The notes under the pieces were generated by a model. That model saw only the letters and a program-made list of their open reading frames with translations, had not been told where the DNA came from and made no database searches. This document shows, one piece after another, positions 1 through 63,735 of a stretch of DNA of 64,000 bases. The DNA lies in contig CM075988.1 in NCBI GenBank assembly GCA_038087875.1, positions 14,820,001 to 14,884,000 on the forward strand, given 5' to 3'. The DNA is from Malacoraja senta. Lineage: Eukaryota. Position numbers and translations under genes: made by a program. The stretch's first letter is position 1. Each line of letters begins with the position of its first letter.

Positions 1-1036
1 AATAATAATAAAATAAAATAAATATAAAGATGTTTCCACTGATCTGCGTTATAAATGTCATTTCTATATGAATCCAATCATTTTTTATAGTCGAAATCGC
101 CAAATTTGCGCAGCTCAGCAGCAAATACAGGGAGAGATGGGAGGTGAGGCAGCGACGAGCTGAGCCTCCCCTCTGATTGTGCAACCCCTCAGAAACTGAA
201 TGAAGCGTGGGCAATAAGCGTGTGCCTGTTACTATCTCTATGTATGTCACCAATGTAATGTATGTAAACCTCTTCATTACATGTCCTCACCTTCCATAGT
301 CCAGGTAACTTATTTCACATATAAATATATTAAATTTGTGCTCGCTGGTCTCATCATAAAACTGCAATGGAAAAGCTCCAGGGGAGGCAGCGATCATGTC
401 TGCCTCACAAGGGGGCGTGTCTTAAGCCCAGTGGAGGAAGAACGAGCGTCAATTACGTAAGCTCAGCTCACGTAATTGACGCGGCCTCGCTCTCCCTCCA
501 TGCTAGATAGCTTCAGCAGCGGCGACGCTGACTGGTAGGTTGATTCCAAAGATACTCCTCTAGTATCTTTGGTTGATTCGTTGATTTGTAGCGGCCGATT
601 CGGAGGCTCTGGGCCGCTGAGAGCTCCCAATTGGGCCCCACGCTGGAGTAATCTACTCTCGGCTCGGGACCCCGGCATCCACTCCCACCGCCGGCCCTCT
701 CCCTCCCTTCTCTCCTTCCCTTCCCTCCCTCCCTTCGCTCCTTCCATCCCTCCTTCCTCTCGTTATTTTCCCTTCTCTCCTTCCCTCCCTTCTTTCTCTC
801 CTTCCCCCCCTCCTTTCTCTACTTCCCTCCCTCCCTTCCTCCCTTCTGTCCCTCCCTCCCTCCCTTCCTCCCTTCTCTCCTTTCCTCCCAGACACTTCAC
901 GCACAGACAACTAACACACACATATCACGCGCAGACAACTAACACACACACAACTAAAACACACACACACACAACTAAGTTAGGATGGGGTAGAAGCCAG
1001 TGCCTCCCCAGTGATTGACCTCACCGCACGTCACTG
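1..1036. mobile_element. Right part of a putative hAT-like non-autonomous DNA transposon
   Basis: Ends in ...gacctcaccgcacgtcactg (reverse complement CAGTGACGTGCGGTGAGGTC, a hAT-like CAG terminus). Repeated gaggcag/gcctcccc subterminal motifs. Abuts a CR1 fragment at 1037. The left end lies outside the window, so the TIR pair and TSD cannot be checked. Confidence 0.45.
695..975. repeat. Low-complexity CT-rich tract followed by CA-rich tract
   Basis: (CCTT/CCCT)n-like run, then acacacacaact repeats. Confidence 0.85.
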
Positions 1037-1305
1037 ATAGGACATAGATTTGAGAGGGGGAGGGGATTTAATAGTAACCTGTGGAGCAATTTTTTTAAAC
1101 AAAGGGTGGTGGGTATGTAGAATGAGCTGAAGGAGGAGGTAGTTAAGGCAGGTACTATCACAATGTTTAAGAAACATTTGGATAATATAGGTTTAGAGGA
1201 ATATGGGCCAAACACAGGCAGGCAGGACCAGTGTAGATGGGGATGATGGTCGGCGTGGGCAAGTTGAGCTGGAGGACCTGTTTCCATGCTGTTTGACATT
1301 ATGAT
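1037..1305 (+). mobile_element. CR1 (HER1-like) LINE 3' fragment
   Basis: Degenerate RT C-terminus region and a 3' tail (ggacctgtttccatgctgt...) shared with the SINEs in this window. Confidence 0.7.
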
Positions 1306-2924
1306 TCTAATATTATAGCAACTTATCCCATTCATCCATTGCACCTTCTGCACTTACTGATGGAGCTCAAATAATGAGTCACTGAGCTTGCTACATCCGG
1401 CAAAGTCAGCATCCCTCTCTGGTGCTCAGTGGATTGCCGAGGCACAGTAATATCATCTCAATGTTGCCAGCATTAGTGACCAGTCCAACCATTAGCACTT
1501 AATACAATTAGAAAGATCAGTCCTGGTATGTTATACTTTGTAAGATTAAAGGGCATTTTAAGAAGCCTTCGAAAAGTAATGAATAATGAGAAGAATGCAT
1601 CCATACATCCTAAAAGAGTTTTTCACAAAATGTTTTAGATTCAAAATTCTAAACTTCAATCTAAATCTGAAAGAAATTAATATCTTGTAAGTTTAAATTT
1701 CCTTAATTGGCATTGACTGAAAGAATTGTGTTCATAAAGTATACAAACAATGTTTCTCCTGAAAATAGGAGAGTAATTTTTCACGACGCAAAAAAAACAT
1801 AAAGAGGATTTGATCAAAATGGTATGATGGTGCTCTGAAAAATATCACCATTGAACTTTGAACTATTGGTCAGAATGATGAATTAGACAGAGAGGGGTTG
1901 GTTTGCAGCTCAGTGAACCTTCTCTAATGGCCTGAAACACTTTGGGTTTAAGAAACAGCAAAGTTGCTGAGTGTAATATTATCTTGTAGGGCTGCACAAT
2001 TCTGCTGCAACATATTCAATGCAAGATCCAAAAAACTGTACAGAATATTGATGACATATGGCACAAAACTGCTTAGCTTGGGATTTGTTTCATATTTACC
2101 TTGACTACTTCACTTAATATCCTGAGACCCTAGAGAAAGCACCATGGGAATATTAACAGAAACAAAATGTATCACTGTAATAGATAATACCAGAGACATT
2201 GCATTAAGTATGAAAGAATTGCCATTTCAAAATCACAAAAAGAATGATGTATGGCAAATATATTTCAAATGTGTAGGATTCAATCACAATTGAACCAAAC
2301 CAAAACATATTGTTGGGATGAAACTATTAGCTCTGTAATGAATATGAAATGTTATGTGAAGAGAAAAGACAATCTAGAGAATGTGAAATGGATAAAAGGA
2401 AGAATCTATCATAATTTAGCTTCAACTCTGTAACCTTATGATATTTCTCCTTGAGATAGTGACTGACCATATTTGAACCATTCTGTCATGAAAGTTCAAG
2501 CAGGTATACAAGCAAATATGTGACATTAAATTGCAAAAATGTTAATGTGACTGTTGACAGCAACGAACAGTCCCGTCAGTCTCTTACATCAGGTGCTTTC
2601 TCTTGGAGTTTACTAGCTATATTTCTATCACTGCAAAGGATACAATTTTAAAATAACTTTTCTGTTAAACTAATGGTTCAAATACTGCATTTCCTTCCTC
2701 TTCTCATTACATTACTTTATGCATTTTTTTAAATGTATGCACACCTAGCAGTTACAATTAAATCTGACAATGTGCTATCAAACTCTACAATGCATGGGTG
2801 ATAGTGAATGGAGGGAGATTTCACAAGCATTTCAAAGATCATGTTGGTTGTTATGTTGAGTATTAAAACAGTAGCTGGCCTTTTAAAATTTAATCCAAGA
2901 ACTATAACGATACAAAGAAAATAA

Positions 2925-3440
2925 TAATGCTAGAAATCTGAAATAAAACGGAAATCACTGGAAATATTCTGCAGATCAGGCAGCATCTACACAGAGAGAA
3001 GCAGTTAATATTTCAGATTGAAGAACTGGCTCTTGTGATAAAAATGTCATTTATGAATTGAATTTGTATCAATTCTGCATGTTTAAATATTCCAACCAAA
3101 TTCATTTTTCTTGCATAATCTGCAAAAGCGCTTGAACTCAATCCTATCCCCATAGCCTTAATGGCCTGACTCTGGCTGACCCCATAATAGATTTGTTGTG
3201 AAAAGTGGGTTAACAGAATATAAGAGATGGAAAAAGGCAAAGAAATGGATATGGAAACCCATGTCACAAAAATAATAATATTCCAGACGATGGAAATCTG
3301 AAATATAAAGAGAAAATATAAAGAAGGGAACACTCAGTTCAGGCAGCATTTATGGTGAGTAAAACAGAATTCATGTTTCCTTAGAAAAGTCACTGACCCT
3401 AACTATTTCCCTCTGCACAAATGTTGCCTGAATTGTGATT
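2925..3440. mobile_element. Two old, degenerate Penelope pLTR-derived fragments (about 2925-3030 and 3270-3440)
   Basis: ggaaatctgaaata...tcaggcagcat motif resembles the younger pLTR copies. Confidence 0.45.
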
Positions 3441-5975: not shown

Positions 5976-8389
5976 TTGCAGTGTCCATGAGGCCAGAAGC
6001 AATCCAAAATATAATCCTTTATCAGTTCATTCATTTTAATTCTGCAAACTTTGCAGGTGTAACAGAGTCTCAGGATGAGTTGTCAAGATCTTGACAGCTC
6101 CATTTCACAAGGATTGTCATTAATCTCTATAAGATAAGGAGCTCCAATTAATTCTTACACTCTTTACATTTAGTTGTTTTAATTTTCAACAAAATTATGT
6201 ACATTTCATGTGTAATCCATGAAACAATTTCCCAGAAACAATTTAACATGTTTCCCAGAAGAAGGCTCACATTAAGAGCAAACAAATCTAAATGGAGACA
6301 GTGCTGTTGGGATGGAAGTCAGCTTTCATTGTGCCCAAGAGCAAGAATGAATTCAGGAGCATTGTACCTCCAAAAATTGGAACAGCCCCTTCTTCGCAAG
6401 TCATTAGAAGACCAAAACTGACAGCAGGCCTTTTCTGCAAGCAACTATTGGGCCTGATGTCTACCTTGGATATCCTGTGGCAGCAGCATGAAGGTTGTTC
6501 CCTGGACTATTCAGGGGGAAAAACACTGTCCTGAATGATCTTTTAAGCCAAAATGTCTGTGTGTGATGAAATGTTACCTCAATCCATGCATACTGTGAGC
6601 TGTGTGAAATCAGTAGTGCTGAACTACTATCTACCTCTTTGGTACCTTCGGACTATCCTTGATCGGACTTTGCTGGCTTTGCTTTGACATTTAACATTCA
6701 GAATCTATACTTTGTTCACTTTTCTTGATTAAGGATAACTTTCCACAATCTGAACCATGAGTGACAGTATGCCTCACTGTGCTTTATGGATCAAAATCAA
6801 TACAGTGCATCTATTTATCACTCCTGGCCCCACTGTGCCTTTTGCGTCTTCAACCTAGGATTCATGGAGCTTTACATAGCTTTGATCTTTACCAAGATTT
6901 ATACAAAACTATTCTCATCTTTATGATGAACAAGGACACATACATCAGTGGTTGCTGCCATTTGCTTGGAAAGTTATCTCTTTCACTGATCTGTTGCTAA
7001 TCAATCAATCCCACAAACCACGGTTCCTTCATAAAATAGGTTTCTATGTTAATGTTTCAGCGCATTATTTAACCTGTTATCTTTATCTTCGACTTTTTGC
7101 ACTAGGCCTTGGCCATTTCTCTGTTTCGGAATCAGGTAAGGAACATCTTATGTAAATGTAATGTAAATGTAAAAGTACCCAATATATGTATTTGTAAAAG
7201 TAACCCAATGGTTTCTCATTCTAACAGGTTAGCCCTAAACCTGATTCAAGAGAGATACATTTCTAAACATTTCTCTTCCATGCTCCATACACAGAACTTT
7301 TCCTGTACTGTACAGTTCAGATTATAACTGGTGATAAAGCCAAATTTTTTCTTCAAGATAAGATGGCAATCTGAGTATGTTTGTTCCCCGAGATGACCAC
7401 TAATGATCCCCTGGAACTATTTGTTGATTTCCAAGTGTCCCTGGATAAGATTTATTCTTCAATTTCCATCACTAAAATGGATTAGCTGGTTATTAACAAA
7501 AAGGCGATTAGTGGAAGCTGGCTGTGTAGAAATGAGTTTCCAAGGTTTATATTATAGCAGTAACTACACTCAAGGTATTTCAATTGATATAAGGTTCTCT
7601 GGGATGTCTTAAAGCTAAAATAGGTGCAATTTGAATGCAAATCTTTTGTGATTTGAATGTTAAACCATCTAACTGGTAGCTGCCTATTGGCGTATTCATC
7701 AATAGATGGACCTGAAAAATTTCAATGAGACCAGTCTTTGGATCTTTGGAATTGTACATTGCGAGTTAGAATAGTGCTAATCAATCTTCACAATTTGGAT
7801 TAAAATCCAGCCAGAACCAAGTTATAGGCGACCCTCCTCATTCTGCTGCCTTTATATGAAGTCAATCTTAAAAGACCAAAACTAATGTGCAGAGTTTAAA
7901 TAATGTGATAAAACCATGTTCAATTTTGCTATTAATTTGAGACGGTAAGTAGCAAGTCCATGTGCATGATACTCGAAATTGAGCTAGTAATTCAAGAAAA
8001 GCCCAATTTGAAATCTTCAAATTTAACAAGCTTTCCTTTGATAAAGATGAAAGTCATTGCTCGCAGTGACTTGAACTACTTCCCATTTCTGAATTCCACA
8101 GCTGCTGGCTATTGGCAGCTGGGAGTCAGCAGAGATACTTTTATTCTGCTGAATACGTTTCAGCCAAAAGTTAAATTCCAGCCTCTACTACCATACAGCA
8201 CTTCAAATCCACTTTATAAATGGATAGGCCTTAAATTAATGTTCCTGAATTCATTCTACATTACTCATTATGTCTGGCTGAAGCAGTTCAACATTTTTTA
8301 CACAGAATAGCAGAGTTTCTGCACCCACCGCGTAGGTTTTCCTGATCTTTAATTGCTTACATTAATTTTCCTCCATCCAAAGCAATGCT

Positions 8390-8537
8390 TCTTCTTATCG
8401 AGTCCACACACAGGATTAGAAGTTGTTCAGCCAGAGCTGAACACACTTCTCGGCATCTGCTTCTTGTGCTTCTTGTGCGTGGTGTGGAAAGATTGGTGGA
8501 AACAGGGCCGCGACGTGAACGCTCTTTCCTTGACCCC
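8390..8537 (-). mobile_element. Short ribozyme-headed retroposon, copy 1
   Basis: 148 bp with TSD aaagcaatgct (8379-8389 and 8538-8548) and an (AAG)n 3' tail. A second copy lies at 63558-63735. Confidence 0.85.
8486..8537 (-). ncRNA. Minimal HDV-like (CPEB3-type) self-cleaving ribozyme, predicted
   Basis: GGGGUC AA GGAAAGA GCG UUCACGU CGC GGCCCU GU UUCCA CCAA UCUUUCC. P1, P2, P3 and L3 can all be paired, with a G1-U wobble. P4 is essentially absent. Confidence 0.8.
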
Positions 8538-8619
8538 AAAGCAATGCTGAAAAACAGGGACAAATGGGCATCACTATCACTTCACGCTGAAGATGAAAAT
8601 ACTTTTTACAATGCCGAGA

Positions 8620-9075
8620 GTACAGAGAAGATTTACGAGAATATCGCCAGGCTACTGGGCCTGAGCTGTAGGGAGAGATTGGACAAGGTAGGAGTTTATT
8701 CCTTGGAAGCTGAGGTGGGTATAAAATCATGAGGGGAATTGATAGGGTCAATGCACAAAGTATTTTACCCAGGGTAGAGGAATCAAAATCAAAGGACATA
8801 GGTTGAAGGTGAGAGGGGAAAGATTTAATATGAACCTGAGGGGCAACCTTTTCACTCAGAGGGTGCTGGGTATATGGAATGAGTTGCCAGAGATCTGTGT
8901 TGAGGCAGGTACAATAACAAAATTGAAAAGACACTTGACAGGTGCATGGATAGGAAACGTTTAGATGGATATGGCCCAAATGCAGGCAAATAGGACTCAA
9001 TTAGATGGGGCACCTTGGATGGCATGGGAGAGCTGGGCTGAAGAGCCTGTTTCCTTGCTGTATGACTATGACTCT
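8620..9075 (+). mobile_element. CR1 LINE 3' fragment
   Basis: RERLDKVGVYSLE-like translation, GHRLKV region, (TATGAC)n tail. Confidence 0.8.
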
Positions 9076-9617: not shown

Positions 9618-10710
9618 GTGAGGGTGTTCTTAGCAAATAAGTACACTCAAGAGAAGACTCTCCAAAAGAACTGCCCCAGCTCAACTCCACCAGGGGAGCG
9701 TTTAATCTCAGGGGGGCAGCAACAGGCGGCAGGACCGCTCTTAGAGCGCTCCGCTATCCCCGAGACCGAGCCGAGCCCAGTCCCGCTAATGCCTGCACAG
9801 CGGACAGGGAGGAAAGCCATGAGAGCAACCGGCCGGTAATTTCTGATTCGTCGGATGGGGACATGTCTCCACCTACACGGAGGAGAGACAGCCGCCAGAG
9901 CTTACAACAGCTCTTGGAGCAGATGCTCCAGCGGGATACGCAGAAAGAGCGTTCTCGCGGAGGTAGGTCAGGCACCTCCTCCACAGTGTCTTGTGCACTG
10001 CCCTCTGCTCCCTCATTACTGGAGGCTAGCATTGGTGACCAGGGTTGGGCTGGTCTGGAACAGGGGCTGGCGGAAGAATTCGGCAGTATGTACGGGGTGC
10101 AGGAGCAGGAAGAGCTGCTGGGTGTGGTGGACCGCTATGTAGCAACCCCACGTGCTGGAAGACCGCTGGAACCAAAAATGGTGGCCAGCATCAATCATCT
10201 GTCAAATAAGCCCTTGCAGGAGAAGGTACTTCTTGAGGCGCTTGAATTTTACACAGCACCAGAGAACTGTGAGGCCCTCAGAGTGAAGACTGTGAACAGC
10301 CAGATCTGGGGGCACGTGGGGTCAAACATGCGTAACCATGAAATCAAGCTACAGCGGATCCTAAGGCTCCACAGGATGTGCTGGCACTGATGTGCAACAC
10401 ACAATTTGAGATAAACAATCTCCGGCGGGGAAACATAAGACCTGCCCTCAATCCCAAATTTGCTGGGTTGTGCAGAGCCCCAGCTGCAGAGACGGATGCT
10501 CTGTTATTTGGGAAAGACCTCAACAAAAAACTGAGGTACATGGAGGAACCAGCGAAATCTTTCGGACTCATGAGGGCAGGCCCTGGGACGAGCAAACCAA
10601 GAGCTACAATACCCAAGCGGCAGCACCCCATGGCAGCCACCAGTCGACGTCCTCAATATGGGACTGGTGAAAACTCGGGGACCGCATTTTATCCCCAAAG
10701 ATCTTTATAG
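9618..10710 (+). pseudogene. DIRS ORF1 (gag-like), frameshifted
   Basis: Consecutive ORF pieces (...PENCEALRVKTVNSQIW..., ...NNLRRGNIRPALNPKFAGLC...LLFGKDL) typical of DIRS ORF1, lying upstream of RT. Confidence 0.75.
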
Positions 10711-11760
10711 ATCAGGGCCCACAGCGGACCCCATGGAAAATGCGCCACCCCCCAACATCGCCAGCACGTCAGACAAGCAAAACCTACAAAAACATCAGGA
10801 AACAAAAGAAACACCAATGAACATGGAGGTAGGTGGGTCTGGTTCCTGCCAGCATATAGAGAATAAGGGTGCTTTACTAACAGAGGGGAGATTACACTGG
10901 TTTAAAGAAGCATGGGTTACTGTCACGTGTGACAAGTATATACTCAACAGCATTAGTGGAGAGGTCATCCAAAAGACCAAACATGAACCTTTGGAATTTG
11001 TATCAAATAAAACCAAAAAAGATGGTGGATGTCGCATCATCATTGACTTAACATCACTAAATAAGTTTGTTGAGTATATACATTTCAAAATGGAGACATT
11101 TGTTACTGCCAAACAACTGATTTCCAAAGGATACTTCATGGCAAGCATTGATCTTAAAGATGCTTACTATCTAATACCCATACACAAGGATCATTGCAGA
11201 TACCTAAAATTTATCTGGTTGGGGCAGCTGAGGCAGTACAAAGCATTGCCCAATGGGCTAACTTCAGCCCCAAGATTATTCATCAAAATATTGAAAATAG
11301 CCATGGCAAGACTAAGAAACAAAAACATATTATCATGGCATACCTGGATGATATTCAGATAGTAGGGAAAACAATGGAATTGGCTGTGGCAGCAGTATCA
11401 GCTACAAAACAGCTCCTCGAAACTCTGGGGTTCATCCTACATCCAGATAAATCTAAGTTGAAGCCATCCACTATTATGGACTACCTGGGCTTCACAATTA
11501 ACTCAGTCCATATGACTGTTACCTTGCCAAAAGGAAAAAAAAAATTTTTTTTTAAATGGTTGCATTAGCACAATCATGCAACTATTTAATGGTCAACAAA
11601 CGACCAACTATTCGACAAGTCCCAAGAGTAATTGGGAAAATGGTAGCAGCATTTCCAGCTACACAATGCGGACCTTTTCACTATCAAAATTGACAAACAG
11701 CAAAGGTACAGGCACTAAAACGACATACAGGTCACGATGTTCGTGTCATGTAATTACCCA
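10658..11760 (+). pseudogene. DIRS reverse transcriptase, frameshifted with small deletions
   Basis: KKDGGCRIIIDL, IDLKDAY, LPNGLTSAPRLF, then YLDD in the next frame and YLGFTIN. Confidence 0.92.
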
Positions 11761-12639
11761 CTGAAGCAATATCAGCTACAGTGGTGGGCAGAAAATGTTT
11801 GGCATAGTTTCAGCTCTATCATCATCACTAACCTTACTTTAGTTCTTCAAACAGATGCCAGTGTTCAAGGCTGGGGAGCAACTAACTCCATATCCAGCAC
11901 AGGTGGTAGATGGACTAACCTAGAGTCATCATTACTACTGACACTGGGCATTAACTATCTAGAGATGTTGGGCGCCTTTTATGCGTTAAAAGCATATGTA
12001 TCTAATATGCAGCACTTGCATGTTCGGTTACAGATTGATAATACTATGGTGGTGGCTTATATTAACCATATGGGCGGCATAAAATCATTATCATGCGACA
12101 AATTGGTCAACGTGATTTGGCTATGGTGTGTCGAAAGACATATTTGGCTATCAGCTACTTATCTACCAGGTAAGCTAAACACAGTGGCAGACACCAGGTC
12201 ACGCAAATTCAATGATAACATCGAATGGATGTTAAACCCTAAAGTATTTGCTAAAGTTATTAAGCAGTATGGAACGCCAGATATCGATGTATTTGCATCA
12301 AGACGAAATCACCAGTTACCTATATATGTCGCTTGGCAACCAGACCCAGAGGCAGCAGCGATAGATGCCATCACGCTGGATTGGGGAAATGTCTGCTTCT
12401 ATGCTTTCCCTCCATTCTGCCTCATCAGTCGGGTACTTCGCAAAATACAGATGGACTCTGCTTCTGGAATTTTGATGGTGCCTGACTGGCCTACACAGCC
12501 ATGGTTCCCGGTTCTACATGACATGGTGGTTGAGTCACCAATGGTCTTTCCCAGTGATCCAGGATTATTAACTCACCCAGTATCAGGCATAAGCCACCCA
12601 TGCCATGAGAAAATTAAACTCCTGGGTTGCAGGGTTTGA
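11737..12639 (+). pseudogene. DIRS RNase H plus C-terminal adenine-methyltransferase-like domain
   Basis: RNase H motifs TDAS..GWG, INYLEM, QIDNT and NTVADT; MT-like motifs DIDVFAS and YAFPPF. Confidence 0.9.
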
Positions 12640-13560
12640 ATAGACCTTACCTGGAACTGGGATTGTCCGAACGAACCATCACCACCATGTCGGCATCCCT
12701 TCGAACATCCACCAAGAGGCAGTACTTAATCAGCATAAGAAAATGGGAGAAGTACTGCCAGGAAACAGGGACAACGTATGCAACAGCCACAGCCACCAAC
12801 GTACTGGAATTCTGGCCCATCTACACCATGATGAAGGGATCAGTTACAGTGCCATCAACACAGCGCAAATTGCTCTTTCTGCTTATCTCAAACCAGCAGG
12901 ACAACAGGCAATGGGATCCCATCCACTGGTGGTAAAACTGATGAAGGGCATTTATAATATCAAGCCCCCTAAACCCAGGTATACCCATATTTGGGATATC
13001 AGTGTGGTCCTGACATACCTCAGGGAATGGCCACCAGCCAGATCCCTCAGCCTCGAGCAATCTACACTAAAGACGCTCATGTTGGTGGCACTCGTATCCG
13101 CTCAGAGGGTCCAGTCACTACACAAGTTAAGGCTGGACAACATGGTGACCACCCCAGATCAGATCGCATTCATCATACAGGGTCTGGTGAAGCAAAGCAG
13201 GCCAGGAACAGTTAATCCACTGGTGGTATTCCGGGCCTACCCACAAGAGCCATGGTTGTGTGTCGTGACCCATCTACAACATTATATAGACACAACCCAC
13301 AATATCAGAGGGAGTGAAAAAGCCTAATGGGTCAGCCACAAGAAACCTCATGGCCGGGTAACGAGCCAAACCATTTCAAGATGGCTCAAAAAGGTACTGA
13401 AGGCTGCCGGAATAGATACTAATACATTTAAATCTCATTCCACTAGGGCAGCATCTACATCAACGGCCGACAGAATGGACGTACCGGTTGACCATATTCT
13501 GAATACAGCAGGATGGTCGAGGGAAACGACATTCAGAACTTTTATAATAAGCCGTTGATG
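12627..13560 (+). pseudogene. DIRS tyrosine recombinase (frameshift near 12810, stop at 13325-13327)
   Basis: N-terminal SAM-like part and SAQRV (catalytic R). Reading past the TAA gives ...FKSHSTRAAS...AGWSRETTFRTF; the catalytic Y is shifted out of frame. Confidence 0.9.
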
Positions 13561-19170: not shown

Positions 19171-22100
19171 TCTATATAACTAAAAGTCTCATCCTGACCA
19201 CTTCCTATCTGTGCTGTATATTGATTTAAGAAAAAACGCTACCGTATATAGCTATGACTTTTGGCCATCTTACTCACAGTCCTCCTCCGCTGAGGCAGCC
19301 CTGAGGATTTTTCTGATCGATGAAAAATAAAAAAAATAATTAGTGTTTAAAAAATCTTTAGATCAGCTGATTGGTCCTCTCGCCTGTCAATCACCATGAT
19401 GAAGATAACGCCCCTTCCGGGGAGACAAGACTATAAAACCCCGGATGCCTGGACGTGAGTCATTCACTCTGGAAGATTGCGAGGGAGGGGCTACAGCTGT
19501 GATTCTGCTGTGAGTCAACTGAACTGTGAGTCTACTAAACTGTGAGTCTGCAATGTACTTGCAATAAATGATTTGTTAGCCCTTAATGAAAATGAGATGA
19601 GTTGTTTGGCCTGCCCTGTGCCTGAAACTGAAATGACAATGGAAATGAAATGAAATGAAAATGAGATGAGTTGTTTGGCCTGCAATGTGCCTGAAACTGA
19701 AATGGCAATGGAAACTAAATGAAATGGAAATGAGATGAGTTGTTTGGCCTGCCCTGTGCTTGAAACTGAAATGGCAATGGAAATGAAATGAAATGAAAAT
19801 GAGATCAGTTGTTTGGCCTGCCCTGTGCTTGAAACTGAAATGGCAATGGAAATGAAATGAAATGAAAATGAGATGAGGTGCGTGAAACTGAAATGGCAAT
19901 GGAAATGAAATGAAATGAAAATGAGATGAGTTGTTTGGCCTGCCTAGTGCTTGAAACTGAAATGGCAAAGGAAATGAAATGAAATGAAAATGAGATCAGT
20001 TGTTTGGCCTGCCCTGTGCTTGAAACTGAAATGGCAATGGAAATGAAATTAAATGAAAATTAGATGACTTGTTTGGCCTGCCCTGTGCCTGAAACTGAAA
20101 TGGCAATGGAAATGAAATGAAATGAAAATGAGATGAGATATTTGGCCTGCCCTGACCTTGAAACTGAAATGGCAATGGCAATGGAAATGAAATGAAATGA
20201 AAATGAGATGAGTTGTTCGGCCTGCCCTGTGCTTGAAACTGAAATGGCAATGGCAATGGAAATGAAATGAAATGAAAATGAGATGAGTTGTTTGGCCTGC
20301 CCTATGCTTGAAACTGAAATGTAAATGGAAATGAAATGAAAATGAGATGAGTTATTTGGCCTGCCCTGTGCTTGAAACTGAAATGGCAATGGAAATGAAA
20401 TGAAATGAAAATGAGATGAGTTGTTTGGCCTGCCCTGTGCTTGAAACTGAAATGGCAATGGAATCGAAATGAAATGAAAATGAGATGAGTTGTTCGGCCT
20501 GCCCTGTGCTTGAAACTGAAATGGCAATGGAAATGAAATGAAATGAAAATGAGATGAGTTGTTTGGCCTGCCCTGTGCTTGAAACTGAAATGCCAATGGA
20601 AATGAAATGAAATGAAAATGAGATGAGATATTTGGCCTGCCCTGAGCTTGAAACTGAAATGGCAATCGAAATGAAATGAAAATGAGATGAGTTGTTCGGC
20701 CTGCCCTATGCTTGAAACTGAAATGGCAATGGAGATGAGTTGTTTGGCCTGCCCTGTGCTTGAAACTGAAATGGCAATGGAATCGAAATGAAATGAAAAT
20801 GAGATGAGTTGTTCGGCCTGCCCTGTGCTTGAAACTGAAATGGCAATCGAAATGAAATGAAAATGAGATGAGTTGTTTGGCCTGCCCTAGGCTTGAAACT
20901 GAAATGGAAATGGAAATGAAATGAAATGAAAATGAGATGAGTTATTTGGCCTGCCCTGTGCTTGAAACTGAAATTGCAATGGAAATGAAATGAAATGAAA
21001 ATGAGATGAGTTGTTTGGCCTGCCCTGTGCTTGAAACTGAAATGGCAATGGAAATGAAATGAAATGAAAATGAGATGTTTGGCCTGCCCAGTGCTTGAAA
21101 CTGGAATGGCAATGGAAATGAAATGAAATGAAAATGAGATTAGTTGTTTGGCCTGCCCTGTGCTTGAAACTGAAATGGCAATGGAAATGAAATGGAATGA
21201 AAATGAGATAAGTTGTTTGGCCTACCCTGTGCTTGAAAGTGAAATGGCAATGGAAATGAAATGAAATGAAAATGAGATGAGTTGTTTGGCCTGCCCTGTG
21301 CTTGAAACTGAAATGGCAATAGCAATGGAAATGAAATGAAATGAAATGAAAATGAGATGAGTTGTTTGGCCGGCCCTGTGCCTGAAACTGAAATGGAAAT
21401 GGAAATGAAATGAAATGAAAATGAGATGAGTTGTTTGGCCTGCCCTGTGCTTGAAACTGAAATGGCAATTGAAATGAAATGAAAATGAGATGAGTTGTTC
21501 GGCCTGCCCTGTGCTTGAAACTGAAATGGCAATGGAAATGAAATGAAATGAAAATGAGATGAGTTGTTTGGCCTGCCCTGTGCTTGAAACTGAAATTGCA
21601 ATGGAAATGAAATGAAATGAAAATGAGATGAGTTGTTTGGCCTGCCCTGTGCTTGAAACTGAAATGGCAATGGAAATGAAATGAAATGAAAATGAGATGT
21701 TTGGCCTGCCCTGTGCTTGAAACTGGAATGGCAATGGAAATGAAATGAAATGAAAATGAGATTAGTTGTTTGGCCTGCCCTGTGCTTGAAACTGAAATGG
21801 CAATGGAAATGAAATGGAATGAAAATGAGATAAGTTGTTTGGCCTACCCTGTGCTTGAAAGTGAAATGGCAATGGAAATGAAATGAAATGAAAATGAGAT
21901 GAGTTGTTTGGCCTGCCCTGTGCTTGAAACTGAAATGGCAATGGCAATGGAAATGAAATGAAATGAAATGAAAATGAGATGAGTTGTTTGGCCGGCCCTG
22001 TGCCTGAAACTGAAATGGAAATGGAAATGAAATGAAATGAAAATGAGATGAGTTGTTTGGCCTGCCCTGTGCTTGAAACTGAAATGGCAATTGAAATGAA

Positions 22101-22640
22101 ATGAAAATGAGATGAGTTGTTCGGCCTGCCCTGTGCTTGAAACTGAAATGGCAATGGAAATGAAATGAAATGAAAATGAGATGAGTTGTTTGGCCTGCCC
22201 TGTGCTTGAAACTGAAATGTCAATGGAAATGAAATGAAATGAAAATGAGATGAGTTGTTTGGCCTGCCCTGTGCTTGAAACTGAAATGGCAATGGAAATG
22301 AAATGGAATGAAAATGAGATGTTTGGCCTACCCTGTGCTTGAAAGTGAAATGGCAAAGGCAATGGAAATGAAATGAAATTAATTGTTAGGCCTGCCTGAA
22401 ACCACTAATTTCGGCCTACAAGGCCCCTATTAGACAAGAAACCAGTCCCTTTTGCCAAAAAAGGCCCCTATTAGCCCAGGAAGAGCATTTTAGCCCAAAA
22501 GACCCATGCCAGACCAGGAAAAGTCCAGAAGTGCCTTTCACTGAGATTTCACAGATTTTTTTTAAAGTCCTTTTAGCCCATCAGGCCTATACTAGCCCAG
22601 GAGGAGTCCCTTTGGCCCATCAGTGTATACCCCCTGCAAG
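19171..22640 (+). mobile_element. Non-autonomous Helitron with satellite array, 3' end missing
   Basis: A|TCTATATAACTAAAAGT 5' end. About 400 bp are homologous to the complete Helitron at 61169. No hairpin-CTAG end is found. Confidence 0.75.
19587..22378. repeat. About 69-bp satellite, roughly 40 monomers
   Basis: Unit gaaaatgagatgagttgtttggcctgccctgtgcttgaaactgaaatggcaatggaaatgaaatgaaat; this explains the 23-aa period in the spurious ORFs. Confidence 0.97.
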
Positions 22641-33125: not shown

Positions 33126-35421
33126 GACAGACACAAAATGCTGTAGTAACTCAGCGTGTCAGGCAGCATCTCTGGAGAAAAGGAGTAGGTGACGTTTCGG
33201 GTTGAGACGCGTACAAATTAGCCAGAAAAAGCAGCCTACCAGAGGACTGAGAGAAATTCAGAGTCCAGCAGAGGAGGACAAAAGGCTTAATTAGGAAAGG
33301 GAAAATAGATTATGAAAGAAAACTGGCAGGGAACATAAAAACTGACTGCAAAAGTTTTTATAGATATGTGAAGAGGAAAAGATTAGTTAAAACAAATGTA
33401 GGTCCCTTGCAGTCAAAAACAGGCGAATTGATCATGGGGAACAAGGACATGGCAGACCAATTGAATAACTACTTTGGTTCTGTCTTCACTAAGGAAGACA
33501 TAAATAATCTGCCGGAAATAGCAAGGGACCGGGGGTTAAATGAGATGGAGGAACTGAGTGAAATCCAGGTTAGCCGGGAAGTGGTGTTAAGTAAATTGAA
33601 TCGATTAAAGGCCGATAAATCCCCAGGGCCAGATAAGTTGCATCCCAGAGTACTTAAGGAAGTAGCCGCAGAAATAGTGGATGCATTAGTGATAATTTTT
33701 CAAAATTCTTTAGATTCTGGAGTAGTTCCTGAGGACTGGAGGGTAGCTAATGTAACCCCACTTTTTAAAAAGGGAGGGAGAGAGAAAATGGGGAATTACA
33801 GACCAGTTAGTCTAACATCGGTGGTGGGGAAAATTCTGGAGTCAGTTATTAAAGATGGGATAGCAGCACATTTGGAAAGTGGTGAATTCATTGGACAAAG
33901 TCAGCATGGATTTATGAAAGGTAAATCATGTCTGACGAATCTTATAGAATTTTTAGAGGATGTAACTAGTAGAGTGGATAAGGGAGAACCAGTGGATGTG
34001 TTATATCTGGACTTTCAGAAGGCTTTCGACAAGGTCCCACATAAGAGATTAGTATGCAAACTTAAAGCACACGGTATTGGGGGTTCAGTATTGATGTGGA
34101 TAGAGAACTGGCTGGCAGACAGGAAGCAAAGAGTTGGAGTAAACGGGTCCTTTTCAGAATGGCAGGCAGTGACTAGTGGGGTACCGTAAGGCTCAGTGCT
34201 GGGACTCCAGCTATTTACAATATATATTAATGAACTGGATGAGGGAATTGAATGCAACATCTCCAAGTTTGCGGATGACACGAAGCTGGGGGGCAGTGTT
34301 AGCTGTGAGGAGGATGCTAGGAGGCTGCAAGGTGACTTGGATAGGTTGGGTCAGTGGGCAAATGCATGGCAGATGCAGTATAATATGGATAAATGTGAGG
34401 TTATCCACTTTGGTGGCAAAAACAGGAAAGTAGACTATTATCTGAATGGTGGCCGATTAGGAAAAGGGGAGATGCAACGAGACCTGGGTGTCATGGTACA
34501 CCAGTCATTGAAAGTAGGCATGCAGGTGCAGCAGGCAGTGAAGAAAGCAAATGGTATGTTAGCATTCATAACAAAAGGATTTGAGTATAAGAGCAGGGAG
34601 GTTCTACTGCAGTTGTACAGGGTCTTGGTGAGATCACACCTGGAGTATTGCGTACAGTTTTGGTCTCCTAATCTGAGGAAAGACATTCTTGCCATAGAGG
34701 GAGTACAGAGAAGGTTCACCAGACTGATTCCTGGGATGGCAGGACTTTCATATGAAGAAAGACTGGATAGACTCGGCTTGTACACGCTAGAATTTAGAAG
34801 ATTGAGGGGGATCTTATAGAAACTTACAAAATTCTTAAGGGGTTAAACAGGCTAGATGCAGGAAGATTATTCCCGATGTTGGGGAAGTCCAGAACTAGGG
34901 GTCACAGTTTAAGGATAAGAGGGAAGTCTTTTAGGACCGAGATGAGAAAATCATTTTTTACACAGAGAGTGGTGAATCTGTGGAATTCTCTGCCACAGAA
35001 GGTAGTTGAGGCCAGTTCATTCGCTATATTTAAGAGGGAGTTAGATGTGGCCCTTGTGGCTAAAGTGATCAGGGGGTATGGAGAGAAGGCAGGGATGGGA
35101 TACTGAGTTGGATGATCAGCCATGATCATATCGAATGGCGGTGCAGGCTCGAAGGGCCGAATGGCCTACTCCTGCACCTAATTTCTATGTTTCTATGTTT
35201 CTATGAGACACAATTTTTGAGACTGAGAGTCAAGGGAGAGGGAAACTAGAGGTATGAACATTTGTAATTTCCCTCTCCCCTGACTCTCAGTCTGAGGAAG
35301 GGTCTCGACCTGAAACGTCACCTATTCCGTTTCTCCAGAGTTGCTGTCTGACATGCTGAGTTACTCCAGCATTTTGTGTCTATCTTCGGTATAAACCAGC
35401 ATCTGCAGTTCCTTCCTACAT
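33126..35421. mobile_element. pLTR fold-back element split by a CR1 insertion
   Basis: Left arm 33126-33208 and right arm about 35210-35421; flanking gttggctgga / gttggttgga. Confidence 0.7.
33209..35204 (+). mobile_element. 5'-truncated CR1 LINE (RT region plus 3'UTR)
   Basis: KSPGPD, NYRPVSLTS, YLDFQKAFDKV, GVP*GS, KFADDTK; (TTTCTATG)n tail; short gagac duplication. Confidence 0.97.
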
Positions 35422-47610: not shown

Positions 47611-47883
47611 AGGGCAGCACAGTGGCGCAGCTGGTAGAGCTGCTGCCTCACAACGCCAGGGACCCGGCTTTGATCCCGAATCGTGGTGCTGACTAGACGA
47701 AGTTTCTACGTTCTCCCTGTGAATGCGTGGGTTTCCTCCGGGAACTCTGGTTTCCTCCCACATTCTAAAGACGTACAGATTTGTGGGTTAATTGGCTTGG
47801 TTAAATTGTAAATTGTCGCTAGTGTGTGTAGGATAGTGTTACTGTGTGGGGGCCCAGTGTTTCCGCGCTGTATCTCTAAACTA
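47611..47883 (+). mobile_element. V-SINE
   Basis: gggcagcacagtggcgcagctggtagagc head and ctgtatctctaaacta tail. Confidence 0.88.
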
Positions 47884-48008
47884 CATTTTGTGGAGAGTTT
47901 TTTGTCCCTTGGTCATCAGAAGTCTTTTCCTTCCACCAACATATCAAGGACAGAGTCCACAAATCAGCATGTCTGCTCTTGTACCTGAGCTACCAATACA
48001 TGCATTAA

Positions 48009-50607
48009 TGCTAGTGGGAGTTGTGTACAGGCCACCTAACAGTAGTAGTGGAGTTGGGGATGGCATCAAACAGGAAATTAGAAATGCGTGCAACAAAGGT
48101 AAAACAGTTAGAATGGGTGACTTCAATCTACATATAGATTGGGTGAATCAAATTGGCAGGGGTGCTGAGGAAGAGGATTTCTTGGAATGTATGCGGGATA
48201 GTTTTCTAAATCAACATGTAGAGGAACCAACGAGAGAGCAGGCTATTCTAGACTGGGTATTGAGTAATGAGGAAGGGTTAGTTAGCAGTCTTGGTGTGCG
48301 TGGCCCCTTGGGCAAGAGTGACCATAATATGGTTGAGTTCTTCATTAGGATGGAGAGTGACATAATTAATTCAGAAACAAGGGTTCTGAACTTAAAGAAA
48401 GGTAACTTTGAGGGTATGAGACGTGAATTGGCCAAGATAGACTGGCAATTGATTCTTAAAGGGTTGACGGTGGATATGCAATGGAAGGCATTTAAAGGCT
48501 GCATGGATGAACTACAACAATTGTTCATCCCAGTTTGGCAAAAGAATAAATCAGGGAAGGTAGTGCATCTGTGGATAACAAGGGAAATCAGGGATAGTAT
48601 CAAAACAAAAGATGAAGCATACAAATTAGCCAGAAAAAGCAGCCTACCAGAGGACTGGGAGAAATTCAGTGTCCAGCAGAGGAGGACAAAGGGTTTAATT
48701 AGGAAAGGGAAAATAGATTATGAAAGAAAACTGACAGGGAACATAAAAACTGACTGCAAAAGTTTTTATAGATGTGTGAAGAGAAAAAGATTAGTTAAAA
48801 CAAATGTAGGTCCCTTGCAGTCAGAAACAGGTGAATTGATCATGGGGAACAAGGACATGGCAGACCAATTGAATAACTACTTTGGTTCTGTCTTCACTAA
48901 GGAAGACTTAATTAATCTGCCAGAAATAGCAGGGGACCGGGGGTCAAATGAGATGGAGGAACTGAGTGAAATCCAGGTTAGCCGGGAAGTGGTGTTAGGT
49001 AAATTAAATGGTTTAAAGGCCGATAAATCCCCAGGGCCAGATAGGCTGCATCCCAGAGTACTTAAGGAAGTAGCCCCAGAAATAGTGGATGCATTAGTTA
49101 TAATTTTTCAAAACTCTTTAGATTCTGGAGTAGTTCCTGAGGATTGGAGGGTAGCTAATGTAACCCCACTTTTTAAAAAGGGAGGGAGAGATAAAGGAGA
49201 ATTACAGACCAGTTAGTCTAACATCGGTAGTGGGGAAACTGCTAGAGTCAGTTATTAAAGATGGGATAGCAGCACATTTGGAAAATGGTGAAATCATTGG
49301 ACAAAGTCAGCATGGATTTATGAAAGGTAAATCATGTCTGACGAATCTTATAGAATTTTTCGAGGATGTAACTAGTAGAGTTGATAAGGGAGATCCAGTG
49401 GATGTGTTATATCTGGACTTTCAGAAGGCTTTTGACAAGGTCCCACATAAGAGATTAATATACAAACTTAAAGCACACGGTATTGGGGGTTCAGTATTGA
49501 TGTGGATAGAGAACTGGCTGGCAGACAGGAAGCAAATAGTAGGAGTAAACGGGTCCTTTTCGGAATGGCAGGCAGTGACTAGTGGGGTACCGTAAGGCTC
49601 AGTGCTGGGACCCCAGCTATTTACAATATAAATTAATGATTTGGACGAGGGAATTGAATGCAACATCTCCAAGATTGCGGATGACACGAAGCTGTGGGGC
49701 AGTGTTAGCTGTGAGGAGGGTGCTAGGAGGCTGCAAGATGACTTGGATAGGCTGGGTGAGTGGGCAAATGCATGGCAGATGCAGTATAATGTGGATAAAT
49801 GTGAGGTTATCCACTTTGGTGGCAAAAACAGGATAGTAGACTATTACCTGAATGGTGGCCGATTGGGAAAAGGGGAGATGCAACGAGACCTGGGTGTCAT
49901 GGTACACCAGTCATTGAAAGTGGGCATGCAGGTGCAGCAGGCAGTGAAGAAAGCGAATGGTATGTTAGCATTCATAGCAAAAGGATTTAAGTATAGGAGC
50001 AGGGAGGTTCTACTGCAGTTGTACAGGGTCTTGGTGAGACCACACCTGGAGTATTGCATACAGTTTTGGTCTCCTAACCTGAGGAAGGACATTCTTGCCA
50101 TAGAGGGAGTACAGAGAAGGTTCACCAGACTGATTCCTGGGATGTCAGGACTTTCATATGAGGAAAGACTGGATAGACTCGGCTTGTACTCGCTGGAATT
50201 TAGAAGATTGAGGGGGGATCTTATAGAAACATACAAAATTCTTTAGGGGTTGGACAGGCTAGATGCAGGAAGATTGTTCCCAATGTTGGGGAAGTCCAGA
50301 ACAAGGGGTCACAGTTTAAGGATAAAGGGGAAATCTTTTAGGACTGAGATGAGAAAAACATTTTTTGCACAAAGAGTGGTGAATCTCTGGAATTCTCTGC
50401 CACAGAATGTAGTTGAGGCCAGTTCATTGGCTATATTTAAGAGGGAGTCAGATGTGGCCCTTGTGGCTAAAGGGATCAGGGGGTATGGAGAGAAAGCAGG
50501 TACAGGATACTGAGTTGGATGATCAGCCATGATCATATTGAATGGCGGTGCAGGCTTGAAGGGCCAAATGGCCTACTCCTGCACCTATTTTCTATGTTTC
50601 TATGTCT
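48009..50607 (+). mobile_element. 5'-truncated CR1 LINE (part of the APE endonuclease plus RT)
   Basis: VVYRPP, GDFN, ILDWVL, SDHN; RT motifs; frameshift near 49195; GVP* stop; ttctatg tail. Confidence 0.97.
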
Positions 50608-61168: not shown

Positions 61169-62844
61169 TCTATATTACTAAAAGTAAGATCTTGACCGCT
61201 TTTGGCTCGCTGTGCTGTGATTTCCGAGAGAACTCCGCCACCTACGGCCGTCATTTTTGGCCACCTTGCTCAGAGCCCCCCTCCGCCTGCCAGGACTGGA
61301 GGATTTTTCCCATCGATGAACAATCAGAGATATATTCATGTTTTTAAAAATTTTGCCATTCTCTCTGCTGCCCCTGCTGGTGGGAGGGGGGAGGGACTAT
61401 AACACCCGGAAGTGGTGTGCCTCACTCAGTCTCTGCAAGATGGAGGAACTGAGAGGTTCACGTCTCTCTGAGCTCTGAATAACACTGAACACATGTCTAC
61501 TCAACAGTGAGTGCCCTTAATGTGGTTTGAAAATGAAAATATGGTTGGTTTGAAGTAAAAAGGCAGTGCAAAGAGTTGTTTGGTTTTTTTGGGGGTTGAA
61601 GTAAAAAGGCAGTGCAAATGGTTGTTTGGGGGGGGGGTTGGGGTTGAAGTAAAAAGGCAGTGCAAATGGTTGTTTGGGGGGTTTTGGGGTTGAAGTAAAA
61701 AGGCAGTGCAAATGGTTGTTTGGGGGGGAGGGTTTGGGTTGAAGTAAAAAGGCAGTGCAAATGGTTGTTTGGGGGGGTTTTGGGTTGAAGTAAAAAGGCA
61801 GTGCAAATGGTTGTTTGGGGGGTTTGGGGGTTGAAGTAAAAAGGCAGTGCAAATGGTTGTTCGGGGGGGTTTGGGTTGAAGTAAAAAGGCAGTGCAAATG
61901 GTTGTTCAGGGGGGGTTTGGGTTGAAGTAAAAAGGCAGTGCAAATGGTTGTTTGGGGGGGGGTTGGGTTGAAGTAAAAAGGCAGTGCAAATGGTTGTTTG
62001 GGGGGGGTTGGGTTGAAGTAAAAAGGCAGTGCAAATGGTTGTTTGGTTTTTTTGGGGGTTGAAGTAAAAAGGCAGTGCAAATGGTTGTTTGGGGGGGGGT
62101 TTGGATTGAAGTAAAAAGGCAGTGCAAATGGTTGTTTGGGGGGGGTGGGTTGAAGTAAAAAGGCAGTGCAAATGGTTGTTTGGGGGGGTGGGTTGAAGTA
62201 AAAAGGCAGTGCAAATGGTTGTTTGTTTTTTTTTGGGGTTGAAGTAAAAAGGCAGTGCAAATGGATGTTGGGGGGGTTTGGGTTGAAGTAAAAAGGAAGT
62301 GCAAATGGTTGTTTGGGGGGGGTGTTGGGTTGAAGTAAAAGGCAGTGCAAATGGTTGTTTGGCTAAACTTGACAACTTCCTGTTTGCACTACATTGATTT
62401 TAGATGAACCTGAATTTGGTGGCCTTGCACCCTGCTTGAAGTGGTATGAAACTGCACTTGAAATTTGTGGCCTTGCACCCTGCTTGAAATGGTAGGAAAA
62501 TGGATTTGAATTTGGTGCCCTAGCACTCCGCTTGAAATGTAATTTCAAGGAATAGCCGTGAGTCAACTGCCAGCCCACCAGCCGTGAGTGAGCTGCCAGC
62601 ACATCAAGCTTCAGGGACTGAGCTGCCACCCCAAGAATCCATTTGGCCCACAATGTCCATACTAACCCTCTGGAGACCAGTAGTCCCTGCAGCCAACAAC
62701 ACCCATACCAGCACTCCAGAAAGCCCCCGCCCCCCCCCCCCCCACTGGCCACCAATATTGGAATTGGTGGAGAGGTGGAATATTGCGTTGGGGGACCAGC
62801 CCTCCCGTGTGAACATGGGACCCAACGGGTCCCACTTAGTCTAG
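61169..62844 (+). mobile_element. Complete non-autonomous Helitron with a G-rich satellite
   Basis: A|TC start, hairpin tgggaccc-aac-gggtccca (62816-62834), CTAG|T end, no TSD. Inserted into a minus-strand Rex1-type 3' tail. Confidence 0.9.
61545..62362. repeat. About 44-bp G-rich minisatellite, roughly 18 copies
   Basis: Unit gttgaagtaaaaaggcagtgcaaatggttgttt(g)n-ttggg. Confidence 0.97.
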
Positions 62845-63557
62845 TACATTATTACAATCGAGCTGTCCACAGTTTACAGATACACCATAACAGGTTTGTG
62901 AATGTTGACTTTGTGTTCTTACACTTCTCTGCCCACTTCTTGGGTACTTGGTATGCCTTCCTCTTGCACGCTTGTTTCTTTTATTGAAACAAAAAATTGC
63001 AAATGCTGTAAATCTGGAAGCAAAACAGAAAAAGCTGGAGGCACCCGTCAGGCTAAACAGCATCAGCAGAAGGAGAAACAAAAGATTGGCTTTTCGGGTC
63101 AAGGAACTTCAACAGAACTGGACAGGTCAGCAAACAGGTGCGCCTTATGTTGCAGAGTGGGGGAGCGGCAGAGGGAATGGCTGTGATAGGGCACAGGCTA
63201 AAGTTTTTAAATTGAAATAGGCAGATCGAGCCACATCTGTGGGGACAGAAAAAAGAAAAGGGGTAGTTGTCCAGTAATGAGTCCAATACGGGTTGCAACG
63301 TGCCAGACTAATATGAGGTGCTGACCCTAAGCTTATGATGGGCATGGTTGGAGAATTATAGGAGGCCAAAAAACAGAGAGCCAGTGTCAGAGAGATGGAG
63401 AATTAAAGAGACAGACAGCTGGAAGCTCAGGGTGGCCTTTTGGAGGTAATATGCAAAGTGATCACCGGGTCTGCTTTTGAAGAGAACACCATATTGTGAT
63501 GCTGTAAACCAATGGGGTTTTTTGTGGACGAGAATGTGCTGCTATGCATCTTTAATT

Positions 63558-63735
63558 CTTCTTATCGAGTCCACTTCACAAGATAGAAATTATTCAGCCA
63601 GAGCTGAACATACTTCTCGGCATCTGCATACAATGGTGTCAGTCTTGCTTCTTGTGCTTCTTGTGCTTCTTGTGCGTGGTGGTGGGAAGATTGGTGGAAA
63701 CAGGGCCGCGACGTGAACGCTCTTTCCTTGACCCC
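63558..63735 (-). mobile_element. Short ribozyme-headed retroposon, copy 2
   Basis: 178 bp with the same 5' start as copy 1, an imperfect TSD a(t/c)ctttaatt (63548-63557 and 63737-63746) and an AAG tail. Confidence 0.85.
63684..63735 (-). ncRNA. Minimal HDV-like ribozyme, predicted (copy 2)
   Basis: Identical to copy 1 except for one P2 mismatch (UCUUCCC). Confidence 0.75.

Follow-up and report, generated by a model that had tools for sequence, protein, structure and literature searches.

Ribozymes of the hepatitis delta virus (HDV) type are reported to cut at the 5′ junction of the retrotransposons without long terminal repeats (non-LTR elements) RTE, R4, Dong, baggins, L1Tc and R2, and some non-autonomous elements are said to use them as well (PMC3774820, PMC6765202). 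The short internally deleted elements (SIDEs) of R2 in Drosophila and NARTc of Trypanosoma cruzi are described as non-autonomous elements that keep the ribozyme head of their long interspersed nuclear element (LINE) (PMC3414825, PMC3383444). Minimal HDV-like ribozymes of 56 nt that lack helix P4, from metagenomes and gut phages, reportedly self-cleave in vitro (PMC10879173). The CPEB3 ribozyme is one of very few self-cleaving RNAs of mammals and has been implicated in memory; its origin is an open question. The 2021 reconstruction of this ribozyme by Bendixsen et al. reportedly goes no deeper than mammals, outgroups being wanting (PMC8233481), and the domestication of intronic ribozymes from transposable elements is reported as a suggestion in general terms only (PMC7761336). 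We analysed 64,000 nt of the genome of the skate Malacoraja senta (contig CM075988.1 of assembly GCA_038087875.1, positions 14,820,001 to 14,884,000; "the window" below), in which an earlier note had proposed a minimal CPEB3-like HDV ribozyme at the exact 5′ end of a mobile element.

The head of this element resembles the HDV-like heads of RTE, R2, R4/Dong, baggins and L1Tc, as these are described, in forming the first nucleotides of the element, in its predicted cleavage at the 5′ junction and in a presumed dependence on co-transcription (PMC3774820, PMC6765202). The published heads were found by structure and, compared by description, have few letters in common with CPEB3, whereas the skate heads carry CPEB3's letters. 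Like the R2 SIDEs and NARTc in their published descriptions, the element is short and joins a 5′ ribozyme to the 3′ end needed by a LINE reverse transcriptase (PMC3414825, PMC3383444); unlike them, it does not appear to be a simple internal deletion of the LINE found here, and it is dispersed genome-wide rather than confined to ribosomal DNA. With the drz-Mtgn and phage theta ribozymes it shares the absence of P4, a length of ≈52 to 56 nt and the J4/2 cytosine, but these are reported from metagenomes and gut phages, beside tRNA genes, and not from a vertebrate retroposon (PMC10879173). HDV-like heads on RTEs are known, and what is new is a P4-less version in a eukaryote (a vertebrate repeat), with a P1 of 6 bp, and the link to CPEB3 at the level of sequence. 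No publication that connects RTEs or cartilaginous fish with CPEB3-type sequence came to light in our searches; key older papers lay outside these, and a prior note is possible. The sequence-level tie between an RTE-borne ribozyme lineage and the mammalian CPEB3 ribozyme merits follow-up.

The head and the retroposon that carries it

On the minus strand, the letters of the head between 8537 and 8486 are GGGGUC-AA-GGAAAGA-GCG-UUCACGU-CGC-GGCCCU-GU-UUCCA-CCAA-UCUUUCC (RNA nucleotide n is window position 8538−n). Standard pairs were present at all 16 positions of P1, P2 and P3 in the window copy. P1 comprises 6 bp (nt 1–6/29–34), of which G1-U34 and U5-G30 are wobbles and the other four are G-C or C-G; P3 is GCG/CGC (nt 16–18/26–28), and P2 consists of seven Watson-Crick pairs (nt 9–15/46–52). 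The topology is that of a nested double pseudoknot in which P1 and P3 are nested and P2 crosses P1. The minus-strand sequence given in the earlier note matches exactly, and the pair list agrees with its assignment of a G1-U start to P1, a 7-bp P2, the P3 stem GCG/CGC, the L3 loop UUCACGU and a J4/2 of the C-N-A-A type. P4 is not present in the window head, where a linker of 5 nt stands in its place. This does not exclude membership of the HDV-like class, because P4 is dispensable in known minimal members. By analogy with the HDV family, C42 (8496) is the candidate catalytic cytosine, and G1 (8537) would be the first nucleotide of the cleaved RNA.

The minimum free energy (MFE) of the nested fold was −10.6 kcal/mol, no better than that of shuffled sequences (z 0.60). 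This is expected because the fold of the head is a pseudoknot, and the test is uninformative. Evaluated separately, the helices of the HDV fold gave −9.5 kcal/mol for P1 plus P3 and −5.7 kcal/mol for P2. We also noted that the linker bases UUUCC (8497–8501, nt 36–40) can pair with GGAAA (8525–8529, nt 9–13) on the minus strand in competition with P2; this alternative pairing could be a folding trap or a switch.

Features of the ribozyme-headed retroposon in the window
Feature	Positions	Strand	Description and basis
Retroposon copy 1	8390–8537	minus	≈148 nt; head followed by a variable middle, the 3′ hairpin GUUCAGC-UCUG-GCUGAAC and the tail GGACUCGAUAAGAAG
Target-site duplication, upstream copy	8538–8548	minus	AGCATTGCTTT, 11 nt
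Target-site duplication, downstream copy	8379–8389	minus	AGCATTGCTTT, 11 nt
Retroposon copy 2	63558–63735	minus	≈178 nt; head at 63684–63735
P4-less HDV-like (CPEB3-type) ribozyme head	8486–8537	minus	52 nt; sequence, RF00622 at 26.9 bits, pair list, covariation with sister families
P1, 5′ strand	8532–8537	minus	GGGGUC; pairs with 8504–8509; target-site duplication ends at 8538; 5′ ends of the family at G1
P2, 5′ strand	8523–8529	minus	GGAAAGA; 7 bp with 8486–8492; four of seven P2 pairs changed on both sides between families
P3 around L3	8510–8522	minus	GCG/CGC around UUCACGU; 13 nt identical to the Rfam CPEB3 consensus
P1, 3′ strand	8504–8509	minus	GGCCCU; pair list; 6-nt form commoner in the genome than GGCCCCU
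J1/4 and linker	8497–8503	minus	GU, then 5-nt linker UUCCA; family alignment; linker at the P4 place of sister families
J4/2	8493–8496	minus	CCAA, nt 42–45; C-N-A-A register before the P2 3′ strand kept in all families
P2, 3′ strand	8486–8492	minus	UCUUUCC; pair list, covariation

The 13-nt core GCGTTCACGTCGC occurred twice in the window (8510–8522 and 63708–63720, both minus) against an expectation of 0.11, a count reached by 2 of 100 shuffles, and both matches fall within copies of one element. Because an 11-nt target-site duplication (TSD) adjoins 8537 in copy 1, G1 is the first base of the insert, as the note had placed it; the junction is ambiguous by 2 nt because the next two downstream bases (GG) also match G1G2. 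Copy 2 is flanked by AATTAAAG at 63739–63746 and 63550–63557, with three extra bases before G1.

Elsewhere in the genome the family has the same layout, that is, the head, a middle rich in indels, the hairpin GUUCAGC-UCUG-GCUGAAC and a tail GGACUCGAUAAG(AAG)n, and its length was 137 to 186 nt across the copies examined. With a 152-nt element as query, the 1.94-Gb assembly yielded 1,221 first-look candidates, and the 40 that were scored were 87–100% identical. An exact head word of 24 nt had at least 1,044 genome matches (488 and 556 on the two strands) and the reversed control none. The earlier caveat that P1 has 6 bp instead of the usual 7 is real, but the 6-bp form is the abundant one: a minor form with a 7-nt 3′ strand of P1 (GGCCCCU) had 20 exact matches as compared with 1,044 for GGCCCU.

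The 5′ end is uniform. All 31 copies of the 30 loci L001–L030 had their start at one and the same position (GGGGTCAAGG in 29 and one substitution in 2), and the sequences upstream of G1 were unrelated among these copies. In a survey of 38 entries (37 distinct copies), with TSDs counted at 7 nt or more, a TSD was detected in 36; it ended at G1 in 31, one base off in four and three bases off in one. A second sample, meant to avoid the bias of ranking by similarity, consisted of 20 matches to the head word taken at regular intervals among the first 100 listed, all on one contig. All 20 were the window's element (17 with the tail word, three interrupted or with a mutated tail); 18 reached G1, and two were truncated near nt 11. 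In 13 of the 17 copies scored for TSDs the duplication adjoined G1, in one it lay one base away and in three it was undetectable. With a TSD adjoining G1 in 31 of 36 entries and 13 of 17 copies sampled by head word, the head does stand at the exact 5′ end of a mobile element. The two truncated copies (L167 and L178) were cut at the same place and start with GAAAGA.

The family was also present in contigs of four public runs from four organisms (184, 17, 2,534 and 953 contigs). In the four runs contig cover breaks off at 8385/8388 and at 8537/8538, where the loose ends are unrelated, and no pile-ups of begins or ends were listed. Logan contigs of this kind cannot reveal where an RNA starts and carry no information on expression. 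The only head variant that reached 10% in them was C39U, in the linker. On the evidence of the TSDs, the (AAG)n tail, the dispersed copies and the lack of any open reading frame (ORF), the element is a non-autonomous non-LTR retroposon. A head derived from a tRNA, 7SL or 5S gene with an internal pol III promoter, as in a classical short interspersed nuclear element, was not recognised: along the element Rfam matched nothing but CPEB3 at E ≤ 10; no tRNA scan was made.

Within the family the head varied less than the body. Non-CpG differences, tallied per site and per copy in 37 copies, amounted to 0.016 across the 44 head columns as against 0.078 across the 104 body columns (gaps counted). Columns with a variant common to at least four copies numbered two in the head, namely G18A (at a CpG) and C39U (linker), and 18 in the body, where the middle region held most of them. 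Such a low divergence in the head fits selection on the source copies.

Sister families, the LINE and the CPEB3 ribozyme

No Rfam model matched at its gathering threshold in the whole window. Within 8350–8650 the CPEB3 model RF00622 was the only match at E ≤ 10 (26.9 bits, E 2.9e-5 for 301 nt). Aligned to this model, the window head has an identical run of 26 nt through P3/L3, and 5 nt replace the 18 nt of P4. Head and CPEB3 ribozyme have in common P3/L3 (GCG UUCACGU CGC), its 3′ flank GGCC, the upstream AGA, the J1/4 GU and the C-N-A-A J4/2. UGU follows the run of C residues in both, with one C fewer in the window head. They differ in that the window head has no P4, a 6-bp P1 and another P2 sequence, and in that it heads an interspersed repeat of an elasmobranch, whereas CPEB3 is a single-copy intronic element of the Cpeb3 gene. 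As regards the RF00622 class itself, the head lies below the 35-bit cut-off and, with at least 1,044 copies, is not a single conserved copy within an intron of mammalian Cpeb3. The similarity to CPEB3 that the earlier note had claimed is nevertheless upheld by the best and sole Rfam match and by 13 nt of P3/L3 identical to the consensus.

The note had suggested a search with the CPEB3 model, and in the whole genome this gave 60 scored matches, of which 39 reached the 35-bit cut-off, the best with 64.2 bits; in 14 control genomes no match did so. The high scorers head other elements, all starting at the same G1 with a CPEB3-type ribozyme first. Designating the window's element, including its minor GGCCCCU form, as family E, we distinguished four sister families, A to D. 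The RF00622 scores were 61.3 bits for A, 54.5 for B, 43.4 to 51.4 for C, 39.9 to 48.2 for D and 37.2 for the minor E form. The head of family A (GGGGAUC AA GGUAGAA GCG UUCACGU CGC GAUCCCU GU, then an 8-bp P4, CGAA and UUCUACC) stands on a LINE. Families B, C and D are short, low-copy elements of ≈95 to 125 nt (6, 4 and 7 genome matches), all with P4. J4/2 is CGAA in A, C and D, CUAA in B and in a metagenome relative described below, and CCAA in E. From its sequence, the window head visibly derives from P4-bearing relatives in the same genome.

Two side observations concern these heads. The E linker region GU-UUCCACC-AA resembles the P4 region of family D (GU CAGG UU UUCCA CCUG CGAA) minus both stem strands (L048:1512–1575 as compared with window 8486–8503); if the linker did arise by such a deletion, the original J4/2 cytosine would have been lost and a former P4 cytosine would stand in its place. 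The motif ACCAC lies just 3′ of the P2 3′ strand in five of six families, namely B, C, D, E (e.g. window 8481–8485) and the metagenome relative (L087:3854–3858); LINE A has AAACAC.

The LINE of family A at locus L061 extends from 86 to ≈3236 (≈3.15 kb) with a 12-bp TSD. Its ORF (199–3003) is intact and encodes 934 amino acids with the domains Exo_endo_phos and RVT_1, and its 3′ end is AGACACGAAAAG(AAG)n; the tail motif of LINE A is AGACACGA-AAAG-(AAG)n. By layout (a single ORF with apurinic endonuclease followed by reverse transcriptase, ≈3.2 kb, short untranslated regions and a microsatellite tail) LINE A is classed from its sequence as RTE-type. Relatives of the protein, at 46–63% identity, came from aphids, psyllids, moths, crabs, amphioxus, sea urchins, a notothenioid fish and Anolis; most of them lie on contigs of ≈3.1 to 3.4 kb. 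At one further locus (L041; G000:C8, about 937.6–937.8 kb, minus) approximately five tandem 26-nt partial head units (GATCAAGGTAGAAGCGTTCACGTCGC) precede a ribozyme-headed LINE copy. It looks as if reverse transcription had slipped or switched template repeatedly at the RNA 5′ end.

The window element differs from LINE A in P1, P2 and the P4 region of the head, and the tails share only GAC-CGA and (AAG)n. Judged from these sequences, it does not appear to be a simple internal deletion of LINE A, and no closer parent came to light. Neither tail-only nor head-only pieces were found in the 30 loci and the window, and no LINE with the exact 3′ end of the element was found; no search with the tail itself was made, since it would have returned only copies of the short element. 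LINE A is the best candidate for the partner that would mobilise the element.

Family C allows the closest comparison with the mammalian ribozyme. All the way from P1 through P2, this element of ≈105 nt can be aligned with the Rfam consensus at the cost of a single inserted base in the P4 loop. Its P4 stem, CAGAUUCU/AGAAUCUG, has the same letters as the consensus CAGauucUG/gaauCUG, and its P2 is GCAGGA/UCCUGC within the CPEB3-model alignment. Manual counts on two decayed copies gave 54 of 67 (L042) and 52 of 67 (L044) positions identical to the model. The differences from the consensus common to all four copies are one J1/2 base, one L3 base, the P4 loop and one P2 pair; the last is a compensated change from A-U to G-C. 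The HDV-like ribozymes in the literature reportedly have no more than about six invariant nucleotides in common (PMC8256844), and this level of sequence identity therefore points to common descent rather than convergence.

A similar head was found outside this genome. We collected 80 metagenome loci encoding relatives of the LINE protein and scanned with Rfam the 20 that had N-terminal reach and upstream sequence. RF00622 scored 55.6 bits in three of the 20, all three being one locus in three contigs (L087, L088 and L089). The encoded protein is 51% identical to that of LINE A, and the P1 and P2 letters equal the mammalian consensus. The head lies at L087:3781–3853 and the 3′ region at 6925–6960; the element closes with AGACACGA(ATC)n and has a 14-bp TSD, ATCATCCGAGTCTT, which lies one G off the predicted G1. 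Its L3 is UCCACGU and its J1/4 is GG, as compared with UUCACGU and GU in the skate families; this joint difference (UCC with GG and UUC with GU) may be a covariation of P1.1. Most of the metagenome RTE relatives had no CPEB3-type head at these sensitivities or were without their 5′ end on the contig. The sole extra match of our own model R1 (L093:57–118; 16.6 bits, E 0.12) was dropped, as its helices were not convincingly pairable by eye.

These comparisons bear on the question of whether the 5′ end of a repeat merely resembles the HDV/CPEB3 motif by chance. The sub-threshold Rfam score and a nested fold no stabler than shuffles would agree with chance, but the 26-nt run identical to the CPEB3 consensus core, the sister heads at 37 to 64 bits, the compensated pairing across families (below) and the same head on an RTE relative in unrelated metagenome contigs contradict it, and we regard a fortuitous likeness as hardly credible. 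The earlier note had ventured that the element is possibly related to a mobile source of the CPEB3 ribozyme. The case is now stronger than proposed: sister heads in this genome score above the cut-off, as high as 64 bits, and are carried by an RTE-type LINE. On balance we lean towards the view that the CPEB3 ribozyme of mammals was exapted from the 5′ head of a retroposon belonging to this RTE-borne ribozyme lineage; the elasmobranch families, family C in particular, and the metagenomic RTE head would then be its first known outgroups, and the P4-less head would be the first natural minimal HDV-like ribozyme amplifying a vertebrate repeat. The origin of the CPEB3 ribozyme becomes testable because this genome offers sequence-level relatives on an intact RTE-type LINE together with short dependants. 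If true, a mobile origin would put a date on the source of the CPEB3 ribozyme and show in which direction it evolved. The heads also form a natural series, which begins with those that bear P4 and leads to one of 52 nt that lacks it, has a P1 of 6 bp and was nevertheless amplified about a thousand-fold; this series bears on the minimal requirements of the HDV fold.

Covariation and the predicted action of the head

To compare the pairing across families, we aligned 53 heads (51 distinct rows): 28 of E, 12 of A, 5 of B, 4 of C and 4 of D. E copies identical to included ones and L074 (internal deletion) were left out; several A, B and D rows are 5′-truncated, which counts against P1. Standard pairing in the HDV-type structure was present in 90.7% of the cells, as compared with 38.4–52.0% when the 3′ partners were slid by one to three columns, so the pairing of P1, P2 and P3, whose lack of conservation would have spoken against the proposal, is kept. 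Neither the observed percentage of paired cells nor the covariation score (0.263) was reached by any of 500 shuffles. Pairs had changed on both sides at four of seven positions in P2, seven of eight in P4, one of seven in P1 (five more one-sided) and one of three in P3. The P2 strands are GGAAAGA/UCUUUCC (E), GGUAGAA/UUCUACC (A), AGCAGGA/UCCUGCU (C) and AGAAGGA/UCCUUCU (D); two P2 pairs differ between E and D and three between E and A, every change being compensated. The HDV-type fold claimed from the window alone is in this way kept across five related element families by compensatory changes. Since P2 is the helix that forms the pseudoknot, its compensated changes in E relative to A and D are the strongest sign in the sequences of continued selection for the HDV fold in the P4-less head.

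The most likely action of the head, and on this sequence evidence a quite probable one, is co-transcriptional self-cleavage 5′ of G1, which would free the element RNA from read-through transcripts. A copy of the element would be transcribed within a longer host or read-through transcript. The head would then fold into the HDV-type double pseudoknot of P1, P3, P2 and a short P1.1 (L3 with the J1/4 GU), the linker taking the place of P4, and C42 of J4/2 would catalyse scission just 5′ of G1, giving the element RNA a defined 5′ end. In this way the 5′ ends at G1 would arise by scission. For target-primed reverse transcription, an RTE-type LINE would supply the reverse transcriptase that uses the 3′ hairpin and the GACUCGA-UAAG-(AAG)n tail, and the TSDs of 7 to 15 bp would result from this step.

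Several observations weigh against this reading. The window head, at 26.9 bits, stays below the RF00622 gathering score of 35, is without P4 and has a P1 of only 6 bp. Its nested MFE fold pairs the GGAAA of P2 with the linker UUUCC, in competition with the HDV fold. A fixed transcription start would likewise give a uniform 5′ end. That the head diverges so little is partly an artefact, because gaps were counted in the indel-prone middle and copies were picked by similarity. As to covariation, 13 pairs changed on both sides overall were reached by 172 of 500 shuffles, independent events are few because the cells come from about five lineages, and P1 and P3 vary mostly on one side. Finally, all that the element has in common with the candidate partner LINE is a brief terminal motif and the (AAG)n tail.

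The first of these points would suit a head that is a dead relic, that is, one derived from a ribozyme and inactivated by the loss of P4 and the shortening of P1, with a 5′ end set by a fixed start in a few master copies or by another nuclease. The absent P4, the 6-bp P1, the sub-threshold Rfam score and the competing GGAAA/UUUCC fold all agree with such a relic. Against it, it was the form without P4 and with a 6-bp P1 that amplified (1,044 exact matches as compared with 20), and the P2 changes are compensated relative to A and D; the pseudoknot was therefore kept after divergence. The start of the element also matches, to the base, the cleavage site predicted from the fold as well as the point where four other families begin in contexts of their own; retroposition would not copy an upstream promoter; and P4-less ribozymes of similar size are reported to be active (PMC10879173). 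We consider a dead relic unlikely.

Self-cleavage might also be combined with, or replaced by, transcription from the head itself. The first 77 nt of L1Tc/NARTc (Pr77) are described as both a promoter and an HDV-like ribozyme (PMC3383444), and the skate head could be an internal promoter of this kind starting at G1. No other obvious promoter and no Rfam small-RNA gene match was seen in the element; no dedicated promoter scan was made. RTEs are, however, described as being without promoters of their own and as relying on co-transcription (PMC6765202). A promoter in the head appears to us quite improbable, and it does not exclude cleavage.

Other features of the window

The window consists mostly of transposable elements. 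Two CR1-like LINE pieces lie at 33251–34819 and 47837–50246 (plus strand). The closest named relatives of the piece at 47837–50246 are from skate (91–93% identity), stingray (84–85%) and sharks, with 75–93% overall, in line with the attribution of this DNA to a cartilaginous fish from its letters alone.

Long open frames at 9641–13327 (plus strand) resemble a large retroelement, with reverse-transcriptase-like and integrase/recombinase-like stretches as judged from the translations only. At 19515–22404 and 61497–62399 (minus strand) there are long minisatellite-like arrays with repetitive open frames in several phases.

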